Shown one piece after another: positions 1-4,334 of a stretch of 4,334 nt of DNA. Position 1 is the stretch's first letter, and each line of letters starts with the position of its first letter. The stretch is from a virus (Duplodnaviria > Heunggongvirae > Uroviricota > Caudoviricetes), in the IMG/VR virus record IMGVR_UViG_2671181050_000015, positions 1 through 4,334 of that record; one strand, given 5' to 3'. The position numbers and the translations under genes were made by a program. The notes beneath the pieces are model-generated. The model searched no databases. It was not told where the DNA came from and worked only from the letters and a program-made list of their open reading frames with translations.

Positions 1-222
1 ATGGCAGATATCATTGATTCAGCATCAGAAATTGAAGAATTACAGCGCAATACAGCAATAAAAATGCGTCGCCTGAACTACCAGACTGTATCCGCAACTC
101 ATTGTTGTGAGTGTGGCGATCCGATAGATGAACGAAGACGCCTGGCAGTTCAGGGTTGTCGGACTTGTGCAAGTTGCCAGGAGGATCTGGAGCTTATCAG
201 TAAACAGAGAGGTTCGAAGTGA
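1..222 (+). CDS. TraR/DksA-family C4-type zinc-finger protein (73 aa), phage/plasmid TraR type
   Basis: Complete ORF from ATG at 1 to TGA at 220-222. Translation contains C-x2-C-x17-C-x2-C (CCEC...CRTCASC) and an acidic N-terminus (MADIIDSASE). The core CECGDPIDERRRL...C..CQ resembles F-plasmid TraR as I recall it (CEACGNPIPEARRK...C.ECQ). Stop overlaps the next gene's GTG start (GTGA). Confidence 0.8.
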   Translation: MADIIDSASEIEELQRNTAIKMRRLNYQTVSATHCCECGDPIDERRRLAVQGCRTCASCQEDLELISKQRGSK

Positions 223-818
223 GCGAAATTAATTATCAGGCACTGCGTGAAAAGGCAGAGAAAGCAACTAAAGGAAGCTACATCGTAGGGCATACATCTG
301 TTAACCAACACGGCAATTTAACAGGAGTTTTTGTTTGTCAAAAATGGAAAGGAGAACCCGGTGGCGTGATTGCGGAATGTCATGTTAACTGCCTGATTGA
401 AACAGATGCTCAGGCTTATGCAAACGCTGAATTCATAGCAGAGGCTAACCCGGCTACCGTGCTGGCACTGCTGGATGAACAGGAAAGAAACCAGCAATAC
501 ATCAAACGCCGCGACCAGGAGAACGAGGATATTGCGCTTACGGTTGGGAAGCTGCGCGTTGAGCTTGAAGCAGCAAAATCAAAACTCAACGAGCAGCGCG
601 AGTATTACGAGGGAGTTATCTCTGATGGGTGCAAGCGTATTGCTGAACTGGAAGCGCGGGAAGTTCAATTACCGACTCGCTACGACCTTCGATATGGACA
701 CCCGATAAATGCAGATGAGCGACAAGTCATGATACCTAAAGAAAATGGCAGTTGGCTTTACCTGATTGACCTAGAACACGCATTACGCGTCGCTGACATT
801 CGCATCAAAGGAGAGTGA
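219..818 (+). CDS. Ea22-like (ead/Ea22 family) coiled-coil prophage protein, 199 aa
   Basis: GTG start at 219 preceded by GAGG (209-212) at 6 nt spacing. No in-frame ATG until near the C-terminus, so GTG is the likely start. N-terminal NYQALREKAEKA... and ANAEFIAEANPATVLALLDE followed by a heptad-rich central region (KLRVELEAAKSKLNEQ) match my recollection of ead/Ea22-like prophage proteins. Family call is from memory. Confidence 0.6.
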   Translation: MSEINYQALREKAEKATKGSYIVGHTSVNQHGNLTGVFVCQKWKGEPGGVIAECHVNCLIETDAQAYANAEFIAEANPATVLALLDEQERNQQYIKRRDQENEDIALTVGKLRVELEAAKSKLNEQREYYEGVISDGCKRIAELEAREVQLPTRYDLRYGHPINADERQVMIPKENGSWLYLIDLEHALRVADIRIKGE

Positions 819-819
819 T

Positions 820-1335
820 ATGGCGTTAACACACCACGAACTCTGTCAGATTGCGTACAAGTTCCTTAAGCGCAACGGGTTCAAGGTTTGCTTTCATGAC
901 CGCTTTGTTGCTGTAACCAGTACCGGAGAACAGCCAGATGCTATGGGATTCAGAAATTCAGCATCATGCCTGATAGAGGCGAAGTGTTCTCGTGCTGACT
1001 TGTTGGCAGATAGAAAAAAGCGTTTCCGTAAAAATCCCTCACTTGGCATGGGCGACTGGCGATTCTTTATTAGTGAGCCGGAAATTATTTCAGTTGAGGA
1101 TTTACCTCCCGGCTGGGGATTACTTCACGTTGTTAACGGAAGAGTACGGAAAGTACATGGATGGCCCAGGGGTAATTGCTGTTGGGGTAATCCTGACGAT
1201 AAGCCATTTACCGGGAATAAGCAGGTTGAATGCGATTACATGTTATCTGCATTAAGGCGCATGGAGTTGAGAGGGCACCTTAATGAAATATATGACGGTG
1301 TGATTGTTAATAAGAAAGAAGGAAACGCGGCATGA
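820..1335 (+). CDS. PD-(D/E)xK nuclease-fold protein (possibly MmcB-like), 171 aa
   Basis: ATG at 820 with AAGGAG (808-813) 6 nt upstream and 1 nt after the previous stop. Canonical signature present: P39-D40 (nt 934-939) then E53-A-K55 (nt 976-984), i.e. PD-x12-ExK. Stop overlaps the next start (ATGA 1332-1335). Confidence 0.6.
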   Translation: MALTHHELCQIAYKFLKRNGFKVCFHDRFVAVTSTGEQPDAMGFRNSASCLIEAKCSRADLLADRKKRFRKNPSLGMGDWRFFISEPEIISVEDLPPGWGLLHVVNGRVRKVHGWPRGNCCWGNPDDKPFTGNKQVECDYMLSALRRMELRGHLNEIYDGVIVNKKEGNAA

Positions 1336-2276
1336 TCACTATTACCAAAGGGCGACTGCTGACAATCAAGCAGTGGCGCGAAACATACGGACCGGGTAGC
1401 AACGTTGTACTGCCAGCAGAAGAAGCGGAAGAACTGGCACGGATTGCACTGGCATCATTGGAAGCAGATCCAGTTAAACGAGTTAACTCAGATCAGATGC
1501 ACCGAGTCTGCTTAGAAGCTAATCGCTATTTAGATAAATATGACGCGATGGCAAAAGAGGTAAATAAGTTGCTTGGACGCATCGCCCCACCAGCGCCAGT
1601 ATTTAACGGCGAATACGGTGACGCATATCAGGGCGCTCGTGAAGACCTGTCCATCTGGAAACGGCGAGCGCTTGAAGCTGATGAGCACGTTCGGCGACTG
1701 GAGCAAATCAATGACCACATGGTGAAAGAGGCGCAGGGAGAATCACGCATGGGCGAGCCTGTAATACGTGAGCCAGCACCGGTAGTGCCTGAAGAAGCAA
1801 CTCCGGAAAACGTAGAAATGCTCTCTGGCTATGTTTCAACGTACAAATTAACCGATAGCGAGCGCGATATTGCTGCCGAAATATGGAACGCCTGCCGCGC
1901 CGCCATGCTTCAGTCCGGAAACTTTCGGGAAAACAAGAATTCGTCAACCAATAATTTTCGGGAAATCGCGGAAACGTCAACCAACTATCCGGCAATTCCT
2001 AGTGAGGTGTTGTCCGCAATCCTGAAGGTTGCCAGGATTCGTGCCGATTTCGATGATTTTGACGGTGACAGGCGAGGTATCGGTGATTGTCTGGATGAGG
2101 CTGAGCAAGAGCTTATCGTTACCATTAACAAATATGCCAGTCAGTTGGCAGCAGAACCTATAGCGCCTAATGACGTTCGAGAGCAGACAGCCATTCCACA
2201 AGTTCCGGTAACTCCGGATGGTTGGATAAGCTGTAGTGAGCGAATGCCGGACGACAGGCAGGAGGTGAATCAATGA
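1332..2276 (+). CDS. Hypothetical prophage protein, 314 aa, ending inside a DUF551-like motif (DGWISCSERMPDDRQEV)
   Basis: ATG at 1332 overlapping the upstream stop; GAAGGA 8 nt upstream. Long uninterrupted frame with ordinary codon composition. The C-terminal WISCSERMPDD resembles the start of the DUF551 domain (W-I-x-[VC]-x-[DE]-R-[LM]-P-[ED]) but the ORF stops about 15 residues into it. Contains an internal 11-aa tandem repeat (NFRENKNSSTN / NFREIAETSTN). Confidence 0.6.
   Translation: MITITKGRLLTIKQWRETYGPGSNVVLPAEEAEELARIALASLEADPVKRVNSDQMHRVCLEANRYLDKYDAMAKEVNKLLGRIAPPAPVFNGEYGDAYQGAREDLSIWKRRALEADEHVRRLEQINDHMVKEAQGESRMGEPVIREPAPVVPEEATPENVEMLSGYVSTYKLTDSERDIAAEIWNACRAAMLQSGNFRENKNSSTNNFREIAETSTNYPAIPSEVLSAILKVARIRADFDDFDGDRRGIGDCLDEAEQELIVTINKYASQLAAEPIAPNDVREQTAIPQVPVTPDGWISCSERMPDDRQEVNQ
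1920..1985 (+). repeat. Imperfect 33-bp tandem direct repeat (2 copies) inside the 314-aa ORF
   Basis: Unit 1 (1920-1952) aactttcgggaaaacaagaattcgtcaaccaat versus unit 2 (1953-1985) aattttcgggaaatcgcggaaacgtcaaccaac. 25 of 33 positions identical, in frame, giving the 11-aa duplication NFRENKNSSTN / NFREIAETSTN. Confidence 0.7.
2260..2267 (+). promoter_or_regulatory. Shine-Dalgarno (AGGAGGTG) for the 27-aa peptide gene
   Basis: AGGAGGTG at 2260-2267 is an 8-nt perfect complement to the 16S rRNA 3' end, placed 5-7 nt before ATG 2273. It lies inside the last codons of the upstream ORF. Confidence 0.6.
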
Positions 2277-2356
2277 GCTGGCCTGATGCAATCGTAACTC
2301 TGGGGGTGGTATTCGCAGCAGCGTTTGTTGTGTTCTCGATTTGTCGATGGGGATAA
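2273..2356 (+). CDS. Small hydrophobic single-pass membrane peptide, 27 aa (MSWPDAIVTLGVVFAAAFVVFSICRWG)
   Basis: Not in the supplied ORF track (too short). ATG 2273 overlaps the upstream stop (ATGA) and follows a perfect SD at optimal spacing. A roughly 19-residue hydrophobic stretch is flanked by an acidic N-side (D5) and a basic C-side (R25). Fills the only otherwise non-coding 84-nt gap in a compact operon. Confidence 0.5.
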   Translation: MSWPDAIVTLGVVFAAAFVVFSICRWG

Positions 2357-2759: not shown

Positions 2760-3014
2760 ATGCAGACAATCATCTATCAGATAACCCCCAGCAAATGGTG
2801 TACGGAGAGAGTCCTCATTGCATCAACAGGGCTAAAGCCTGGCACCATTGAGCGGGCAAGAAGAAAGTCATGGATGCAGGGAAAAGAATACCGCCATTAC
2901 GCTGTAGAAGGTGATCCGGGGCACTACAGTGAATGCCTGTACAACATCGAAGAAATTATGCGATGGATCGAAAACCAGAAACAACCAGGTGCCAAAAATG
3001 CAAGTTCCGGTTAA
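2760..3014 (+). CDS. xis: Putative excisionase / recombination directionality factor, 84 aa
   Basis: ATG 2760 with GAGG (2751-2754) upstream. Small basic protein immediately upstream of and co-directional with the integrase. The pattern W-x(~11)-TIERARR-x2-W-x2-GKEY parallels the lambda-Xis-type arrangement (W...TVRRW...GREY) as I recall it. Confidence 0.6.
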   Translation: MQTIIYQITPSKWCTERVLIASTGLKPGTIERARRKSWMQGKEYRHYAVEGDPGHYSECLYNIEEIMRWIENQKQPGAKNASSG

Positions 3015-3047
3015 CCTGTTAATGCTCCTGGACGTCTGGGAGGTTTA

Positions 3048-4334
3048 ATGAGTAACGCATCATACCCGACAGGCGTTGAAAACCATGGAGGATCACTCCG
3101 TATATGGTTTCACTATAATGGCAAACGTGTCAGAGAAAACCTCGGTGTTCCTGACACAGCCAAAAACCGGAAGATCGCTGGTGAACTTCGCACTTCCGTT
3201 TGTTTTGCAATCAGAATGGGGAGTTTCGACTACGCCGCGCAGTTCCCTAATTCCCCTAACCTGAAACACTTTGGTCTGGGAAAAAGAGAGATAACCGTTA
3301 AGGCACTTTCGGAAAAATGGTTGGACCTTAAGAAAATTGAGATTTGTGCGAATGCACTTAACCGTTACCAGTCAGTAATTAAAAACATGTTACCAATGTT
3401 AGGTGAAAAAAAACTGGTTTCATCCATAACAAAAGAGGATTTACTTTTCGTAAGGAGAGATTTGTTGACCGGTTACCAAAAGCTTTCTAATGGAAAGACT
3501 TCTTCCATAAAAGGGCGCTCAGTGGTCACGGTAAACTACTATATGACAACCATAGCTGGAATGTTTCAATTTGCAACAGATAATGGTTATACCTCAGGAA
3601 ACCCATTTAACGGTCTGGCTCCCTTAAAAAAGTCCAAGGTAAAACCAGATCCTCTCACCCGTGACGAATTTATTCGTTTTATTGAGGCTTGCCGTCATCA
3701 ACAAACAAAAAACCTGTGGATTCTCGCTGTATACACGGGTATTCGTCACGGGGAGTTGGTATCGCTGGCATGGGAAGATATAGACCTTAAAGCAAGGACT
3801 ATAACCATCCGTAGAAATTATACAAAACTTGGCGAATTCACTCCACCAAAAACCGATGCAGGCACCGGAAGGACAATTCATCTGGTTCAACCAGCTATTG
3901 ATGCTCTTAAAAGCCAGGCGGAAATGACCATGCTTGGAAAGCAACATTCTGTAGAGGTGAAGCAGAGGGAATATGGGAGAACTGCTGTGCATAAATGCAC
4001 TTTTGTTTTTAGTCCTCAGGTAACAAAACAGCAGCAGTTGTCCGGACCTCACTACAAGGTTGACTCCATCAGGGAGTCATGGACAAGTATCTTAAAACGC
4101 GCAGGTCTGAGACACAGAAAATCGTACCAATCCAGGCATACTTATGCATGCTGGTCACTTGCCGCTGGAGCTAATCCTAGTTTTATCGCAAGCCAGATGG
4201 GCCACATAAACGCACAAATGGTATTCAATGTTTACGGAGCATGGATGAAAGACAACAATCACGAACAGATAGAACTCCTTAACAAAAGACTATCTGAAAG
4301 TGTCCCATGTATGCCCCATAAGAAAGTGGGGTAA
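3048..4334 (+). CDS. int: Tyrosine-type site-specific integrase, 428 aa, with N-terminal arm-type DNA-binding domain
   Basis: ATG 3048 with GGGAGG (3038-3043) upstream; TAA at 4332-4334. N-terminal PTGVENHGGSLRIWFHYNGKRVRENLG is the arm-binding (DUF3596-type) motif seen in IntS/IntR-like enterobacterial prophage integrases. Catalytic signatures present: TGIRHGEL (Arg box I), SRHTYA (box II) and GH...VYGAW (His and catalytic Tyr). More AT-rich than upstream genes. Confidence 0.93.
   Translation: MSNASYPTGVENHGGSLRIWFHYNGKRVRENLGVPDTAKNRKIAGELRTSVCFAIRMGSFDYAAQFPNSPNLKHFGLGKREITVKALSEKWLDLKKIEICANALNRYQSVIKNMLPMLGEKKLVSSITKEDLLFVRRDLLTGYQKLSNGKTSSIKGRSVVTVNYYMTTIAGMFQFATDNGYTSGNPFNGLAPLKKSKVKPDPLTRDEFIRFIEACRHQQTKNLWILAVYTGIRHGELVSLAWEDIDLKARTITIRRNYTKLGEFTPPKTDAGTGRTIHLVQPAIDALKSQAEMTMLGKQHSVEVKQREYGRTAVHKCTFVFSPQVTKQQQLSGPHYKVDSIRESWTSILKRAGLRHRKSYQSRHTYACWSLAAGANPSFIASQMGHINAQMVFNVYGAWMKDNNHEQIELLNKRLSESVPCMPHKKVG

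Follow-up and report, generated by a model that had tools for sequence, protein, structure and literature searches.

A stretch of phage DNA that begins exactly at the start codon of a small zinc-finger gene raises two questions: what the encoded protein does, and whether the gene leads its transcription unit. The window (the whole 4,334-nt stretch analysed here) carries this gene on the plus strand at positions 1–222 as an intact ORF of 73 codons, from ATG to TGA, and its product is MADIIDSASEIEELQRNTAIKMRRLNYQTVSATHCCECGDPIDERRRLAVQGCRTCASCQEDLELISKQRGSK. The initial annotation, made from the sequence alone, had described a 73-aa product with an intact C-x2-C-x17-C-x2-C finger and an acidic N-terminus. 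The finger is exact, with the cysteines at C35, C38, C56 and C59, and the N-terminal region contains D3, D6, E10, E12 and E13 and no basic residue in positions 1–15, the first being R16. The features of the gene are as follows.

1..222, plus strand: orf73-type gene for a TraR/DksA-family protein, ortholog of lambda Orf73 (ORF; 69/73 identity; PF01258; phrog_54; identical annotated DNA copy).
7..24, plus strand: DxxDxA codons, D3-I-I-D6-S-A8, in the N-terminal helix (read from the sequence; aligned with D3, D6 and A8 of F TraR).
103..177, plus strand: C4 zinc-binding globular domain, C35/C38/C56/C59 (PF01258 match over residues 33–64; alignment; pLDDT 88–92).
136..141, plus strand: R46-R47, counterparts of TraR R48 (at the rim helices of the secondary channel) and R49 (at beta' Si3) (alignment).
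169..219, plus strand: C-terminal helix, predicted for residues 57–69, with E64 at nt 190–192 (AF2 model; E64 aligned with TraR E66).
219..222, plus strand: GTGA overlap of the ea22 GTG start (219–221) with the orf73 TGA stop (220–222) (sequence; identical arrangement in lambda).

In TraR, the N-terminal helix with the DxxDxA motif extends to the active-site region of RNA polymerase (RNAP), and the region equivalent to the C-terminal helix contacts beta Si1. The roles given above for TraR R48 and R49 are those described in PMC9239242.

Profile and sequence searches agreed with the proposed membership of the TraR/DksA family. Pfam PF01258 (zf-dskA_traR) scored 37.8 bits on the 73-aa protein, above its gathering score of 24.9, and the PHROG family phrog_54, 'DksA-like zinc-finger protein', covered residues 1–71, the full length, with an E-value of 6e-26. 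BLASTP aligned the protein with lambda Orf73 without gaps at 69 of 73 identical residues (95%; E 4e-52). The zinc-finger and TraR-family resemblance is far beyond chance. The NCBIfam model TIGR02419 (C4_traR_proteo; phage/conjugal plasmid TraR family) also matched end to end (residues 3–64 on model positions 1–64 of 64; E 8e-15), at 55.1 bits, 4.6 short of its curated cut-off of 59.7. When the model was run on controls, F TraR scored 80.5 bits, above the cut-off, and lambda Orf73 54.7 bits, below it. Because the validated lambda Orf73 also falls below, we attribute the shortfall to a threshold effect of the model for the lambda clade; the cut-off is a classifier threshold and not a biological defining feature, and the sub-threshold score was dropped as an argument against membership after this control. 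Alignment with F TraR and lambda Orf73, proposed as a check in the initial annotation, gave 31% and 95% identity with the hallmark residues aligned, the four cysteines of the finger falling on C37, C40, C58 and C61 of F TraR.

Structural comparison gave a similar picture. Among PDB sequences, the protein matched YbiI and F TraR. Its AF2 model (mean pLDDT 77; 88–92 across residues 31–70, the zinc domain) comprises a helix at residues 6–27, a small zinc globule and a helix at residues 57–69. The best Foldseek hit in the PDB was 6n57_M, F TraR bound to E. coli RNAP (probability 1.00, TM 0.57, 72 columns), followed by YbiI, TraR 5w1s and DksA–RNAP complexes. The fit to 6n57_M was moderate (rmsd 5.2 Å), which agrees with a published remark that models of free Orf73 and RNAP-bound TraR do not hold helix 1 and helix 3 at the same angles (PMC8614690). 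Zinc ribbons are common and the Foldseek E-values were modest for a 73-residue model (best 1.8e-3), so the TraR likeness might reflect the shared fold only, in a small zinc-ribbon protein with another target such as DNA or a host protein. We regard this as scarcely credible, since the similarity to TraR is full-length, taking in the N-terminal DxxDxA and the C-terminal helix beyond the finger, and since the protein is 95% identical to one for which binding to the DksA site of RNAP has been demonstrated.

Proteins of the TraR subfamily are recognised by the DxxDxA motif at the N-terminus, by four cysteines that form a zinc site, by R48/R49 within the globular domain and by an acidic residue that is conserved in the C-terminal helix; TraR carries ExxRK where lambda Orf73 has ExxRL (PMC9239242, PMC8614690). 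The window protein has the DxxDxA motif, the C4 motif, equivalents of R48 and R49, the acidic C-terminal helix and a TraR-like fold, together with the subfamily size of ~70–75 aa and a single N-terminal helix replacing the DksA coiled coil. Its E44-R-R46-R47-L48 stretch is the ExxRL segment, and two extra cysteines, C36 and C53, are present. Across 37 aligned homologs (identity down to 58%), D6, A8, C35, R46, C56, Q60, E64 and K68 were invariant, and D3, C38, R47 and C59 were conserved in at least 90%.

Comparison with the known family members places the protein more closely. F TraR (PDB 5W1S, 6N57; PF01258, NF010268/TIGR02419) has the same size, three-element architecture and ppGpp-independent action (PMC9239242), but comes from the tra operon of a conjugative plasmid whereas the window gene is from a phage, carries ExxRK rather than ExxRL, and is identical to the window protein at a level about the low end of the 32–49% range to F TraR reported for five tested homologs (PMC9239242). 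E. coli DksA has a homologous zinc-finger domain, the same secondary-channel site on RNAP and the same class of target promoters; however, it is about twice as long, carries its two Asp at the tip of a coiled coil and is fully active only with ppGpp, whereas the window protein, with its single N-terminal helix, would be expected to act alone like TraR and Orf73. DksA proper was ruled out by length (73 aa versus ~150 aa), by the lack of a coiled coil and because no DksA equivalog model matched. E. coli YbiI (PDB 2KGO) is the best PDB sequence match in the zinc-finger region (E 3.8e-5) and second in Foldseek, yet it is an 88-aa chromosomal protein that matched over residues 31–65 only and does not share the lambda-type synteny. 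In contrast, lambda Orf73 has the same 73-aa length and an identical DxxDxA, C4, RR and C-terminal helix, with four conservative substitutions (H27Y, A29T, I30V and V49A). High full-length identity and the exo-orf60a-orf63-orf61-orf73-ea22 synteny upstream of xis-int, which define the lambda Orf73 orthologous group, were both found. The window protein is a lambda Orf73 ortholog in the TraR branch of the DksA/TraR family.

The initial annotation had read the gene as encoding a regulator that acts in the RNAP secondary channel, and had cited a lambda ORF of the same length that behaves similarly; that ORF is Orf73. On minimal medium, induction of lambda Orf73 makes up for a dksA deletion. When purified, it competes for RNAP with labelled DksA, half-maximally at 0.65–1 uM, and therefore occupies the same site in the secondary channel (PMC9239242). 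It inhibits rrnB P1 in the absence of ppGpp with an IC50 of about 50 nM, like TraR, and also inhibits rpsT P2 without ppGpp, while the RNA-1 promoter is unaffected; D3N and D6N variants are strongly defective (PMC9239242). Binding of RNAP at the DksA site and ppGpp-independent inhibition of rrnB P1 can be carried over to the window protein from its 95%-identical lambda counterpart, which supports the secondary-channel reading by analogy. The promoter effects that the initial annotation gave for F TraR hold in part for lambda Orf73. Inhibition of rRNA promoters is seen with lambda Orf73, but activation of amino-acid promoters is hardly shared: F TraR activates thrABC, argI, rpoH P3 and F promoters, whereas lambda Orf73 gives little or no in vitro activation of thrABC, argI and rpoH P3 and has an effect of only 1.4-fold on pL (PMC9239242).

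Reprogramming of the host on prophage induction, also suggested from the sequence, has a counterpart in lambda, where Orf73 lowers rRNA synthesis after pL induction and raises phage yield; the window protein would be expected to do the same. Expressed from pL in a single-copy defective prophage, lambda Orf73 reduced precursor rRNA to 29% and rpsT mRNA to 45%; growth was slower and the efficiency of plating about 10^4-fold lower (PMC9239242). Lysogens with an orf73 deletion or D3A/D6A released 3–4 fold fewer phage after mitomycin C (PMC9239242). The same RNAP mechanism could instead serve mainly to favour the lysogenic decision or to keep host DNA replication from starting ('bin') rather than to increase lytic yield. 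Deletion work from another laboratory, as summarised in PMC8614690, describes orf73 as pro-lysogenic, its loss from lambda or phi24B lowering host survival after infection and the efficiency of lysogenisation; this is set against the pro-lytic effect on yield in PMC9239242. Likewise, earlier work, as referred to in PMC9239242, links orf73, ea22, ea8.5 and orf55 to a block on the start of host replication, and dnaA P2 is inhibited in vitro at high Orf73 concentrations, with an IC50 of about 420 nM (PMC9239242). However, Orf73 from a single-copy prophage barely or not at all affected dnaA mRNA, while rRNA synthesis was cut about 3-fold (PMC9239242), and the lower burst without Orf73 or with D3A/D6A also argues against a mainly pro-lysogenic or bin role. 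We therefore consider such a main role possible but unlikely. Pro-lysogenic and lytic-yield roles need not conflict.

We compared the window allele with lambda orf73, which lies in lambda sequence L001 at 2893–3114 on the minus strand, between ea22 and orf61 (tblastn). The DNA differs at 12 of 222 nt, giving 11 changed codons, seven synonymous and four non-synonymous; we take this count as a sign of purifying selection on orf73. The RefSeq lambda record NC_001416 leaves a gap beside ea22 (30395–30613 region) and has no orf73 annotation there, despite the experimentally characterised protein. Many chromosomes of E. coli O157:H7 contain an identical DNA copy of the window gene, whose product RefSeq names 'TraR/DksA family transcriptional regulator' (WP_000763383.1), and 3296 of 5426 complete E. 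coli genomes (~60%) carry a copy at ≥90% identity. A protein at least 99% identical is encoded in 42 phage records, mostly Stx-converting phages. Stx phages share the exo-xis block, and several Stx2a and Stx1 phage records hold a 100% identical protein; Orf73 of 933W and VT2-Sakai is 94.5% identical, and phi24B is also in the Orf73 group. The variable genes downstream differ in Stx phages, a sign of mosaicism.

The four substitutions might mean that the window protein has diverged from, or is weaker than, lambda Orf73, for example through altered promoter selectivity or regained activation. V49A is located two positions beyond R47, within the ExxRL segment; the corresponding ExxRK of TraR contacts beta' Si3, a contact linked to activation, and positions 27–30 sit between helix 1 and the zinc domain. 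We judge this very unlikely: positions 27, 29, 30 and 49 are among the most variable columns of the 37-homolog alignment, V30 and A49 are the family consensus (lambda being the outlier at 49), Y27 occurs in other members, every residue known to be required is unchanged, and the same allele is found at 100% identity in many O157:H7 Stx prophages.

The same allele is broken in two related prophages, L008 and L012 (about 9788–10004 in each). Five base pairs are deleted there between CGAT repeats (GGCGATCCGATAG to GGCGATAG), which shifts the frame after codon 40 and leaves a 41-aa stub that lacks the second cysteine pair, C56 and C59. The gene is thus decaying in some prophages and is dispensable. 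The deletion probably accounts for the many 42–44 aa 'partial' entries in the protein search. For the window copy, a decayed pseudogene was rejected, the ORF being intact.

To place the gene, we located the exact 4334-nt window at 9783–14116 of contig L010 (NCBI assembly GCA_018414665.1) and at the same coordinates of L011. Beyond orf73 the window contains the following.

219..818, plus strand: ea22-like gene, 199 aa (PF13935 Ead_Ea22, E 2e-41; synteny with lambda and Stx phages).
820–1335, plus strand: 171-aa ORF (phrog_9263 and phrog_631, function unknown, only).
1332–2276, plus strand: 314-aa ORF (mosaic of several PHROGs, ending 16 residues into a DUF551 match).
2273–2356, plus strand: 27-aa hydrophobic ORF absent from the ORF list, MSWPDAIVTLGVVFAAAFVVFSICRWG (its start overlaps the stop of the 314-aa ORF as ATGA).
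Between the 314-aa ORF and the excisionase, plus strand: a DUF4222 protein, then a 44-aa ORF (profile search and ORF list).
2760–3014, plus strand: excisionase (PF06806).
3048–4334, plus strand: tyrosine integrase (PF12167 plus PF00589).

Synteny makes ea22 the conserved partner that follows orf73 in the exo-xis block, and the GTGA overlap suggests translational coupling of the two genes. Relatives L002 and L003 show the order YqaJ (exo)-DUF1317-DUF1382-orf61-orf73-Ea22 ... xis-int; the annotations of phage PhiR5_1 and of O157:H7 strain TR01 give the same gene order, which also matches lambda. The position between orf61 and ea22, the GTGA overlap and the sequence of an upstream hairpin are all shared with lambda, although the prophage of the window has another immunity region and an integrase module of the yehV/mlrA type, as opposed to lambda int/attB. 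The integrase gene is followed directly by host mlrA (yehV; L010 14152–14838), and then by genes for an osmoprotectant ABC transporter and for a family 3 glycosyl hydrolase. Since mlrA/yehV adjoins int, the prophage occupies the yehV/mlrA site, which is the integration site of the Stx1 phages of O157:H7 Sakai. VT1-Sakai matched 76% of the window at 95.7% identity, and no stx gene was found in the window or the fetched flanks. In a lambdoid prophage, the window makes up the distal part of the early-left arm, and xis and int form the distal end of the leftward transcription unit of orf73.

Several observations concern the neighbouring genes. The best matches in complete E. coli genomes begin at nt 456 or 459 of the window, inside ea22, at ~99% identity, and window 1–455 belongs to other lineages, which marks a mosaic recombination junction at window 456–459. 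It falls at the start of a coiled-coil segment that is also common to lambda Ea22 (LLDE.ERNQQYIKRRDQENEDIALTVGKLRVELE). The 171-aa ORF had no match in Pfam, NCBIfam or PADLOC; by eye, it has a D...E-x-K arrangement (PDAMGF ... LIEAKCS) reminiscent of PD-(D/E)xK nucleases. The 314-aa ORF looks like a fusion or truncation product, judging by its patchwork of profile matches. An identical 314-aa protein is widespread (1730 blocks of the collection index) beside differing upstream modules; a lookup of this protein led to mosaic prophages that lack orf73 and was uninformative for orf73. The 27-aa ORF, which had no match in Pfam or PADLOC, may be a small membrane peptide. Of the PADLOC defence models, none matched the neighbouring genes, and the 73-aa protein drew only a sub-threshold, meaningless match (E 0.009); an Rfam search of the window returned no RNA family.

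The initial annotation had also placed the gene at the head of an operon, a reading that arose because the window starts at the orf73 ATG, and this claim failed. The same-strand genes 5′ of orf73 in L010 and L011 encode a Peptidase_S24 repressor, KilR, Gam, RecT/Bet, YqaJ/Exo, DUF1317 (orf60a), DUF1382 (orf63) and a 71-aa orf61 homolog, so that six early-left genes, gam-bet-exo-orf60a-orf63-orf61, precede it on the same strand in the source contig, together with a terminator-like hairpin. The hairpin lies 60 nt 5′ of the orf73 ATG, outside the window, between orf61 and orf73 (L010 9705–9729; 60–78 nt upstream of window position 1), and consists of AGGGAGCU-ACA-GGCUCCUU followed by U6. It has a free energy of -10.2 kcal/mol (z = -4.4), and none of 200 shuffled sequences folded as well. 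By its sequence it resembles an intrinsic terminator; it is identical in lambda and equals the predicted 't2' terminator of lambda and phi24B (PMC4195576). With such a hairpin upstream, expression of orf73 probably depends on antitermination or on a putative internal promoter.

An internal sigma-70 promoter would restore a separate unit for orf73, driven independently of pL. BPROM predicts a promoter, p1, upstream of orf73 (-35 TCATCA, -10 TTTTATTAT; PMC4195576), the same sequence is present in the source contig, and in phi24B the orf73 and ea22 mRNAs exceed those of upstream genes, especially after H2O2 induction (PMC4195576). However, p1 is a computational prediction only, with poor hexamers (by our own count the -35 matches at 3/6) that overlap the hairpin and its U-tract. 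Consensus scans of L010 5300–10100 and L003 8200–9400 found no sigma-70-like promoter on the plus strand upstream of orf73, lambda mRNA levels drop rather than rise across the orf61-orf73 hairpin (PMC4195576), and in PMC9239242 orf73 is handled as a gene of the pL operon and expressed from pL. We found no experimental verification of t2 or p1 in the literature. Because the scans were negative and lambda transcripts fall at this point, we consider an autonomous orf73 promoter improbable. There is a still smaller chance that the Y27/T29/V30/A49 allele of the yehV-site prophage and the Stx phages differs from lambda Orf73 in one of two ways: through its own stress-responsive promoter, the predicted p1, with high orf73-ea22 expression after oxidative stress, or through another promoter spectrum that affects prophage induction or Stx toxin yield.

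Together, these results make it very probable that window 1–222 is the orf73 of an E. coli lambdoid prophage beside mlrA/yehV, and that its product acts as lambda Orf73 does; no feature of the sequence spoke against this explanation. The sequence, motifs, fold and synteny were established here; the biochemistry and physiology are those of lambda Orf73, and we infer the same mechanism for the window protein because of the 95% identity and because all required residues are intact. By analogy with lambda, inactivation of the repressor would lead to transcription of orf73 in an early-left, pL-type operon, within the exo-xis block, after gam-bet-exo-orf60a-orf63-orf61 and before ea22...xis-int. The 73-aa protein would then bind free RNAP rather than DNA: its N-terminal helix with D3xxD6xA8 would enter the secondary channel in the direction of the active site, the Zn(Cys4) globule and R46/R47 would be placed on the channel rim and beta' Si3, and the C-terminal helix would touch beta Si1. 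As a consequence, host ribosome synthesis and growth would slow, RNAP and other resources would be freed, and phage yield would rise a few-fold.

The window gene is already known: an identical protein is in RefSeq, and the mechanism, the structure of TraR and the phage phenotype of lambda Orf73 are published. As an ordinary and well-known gene, it adds little to the knowledge of Orf73. What the analysis does provide is the recognition of a TraR-type protein from raw sequence and the assignment of the window to the exo-xis block of a lambdoid prophage that sits at mlrA/yehV. The TraR/Orf73 class of genes is of biological importance, since it lets phages and plasmids imitate the stringent response at RNA polymerase with no need for ppGpp.
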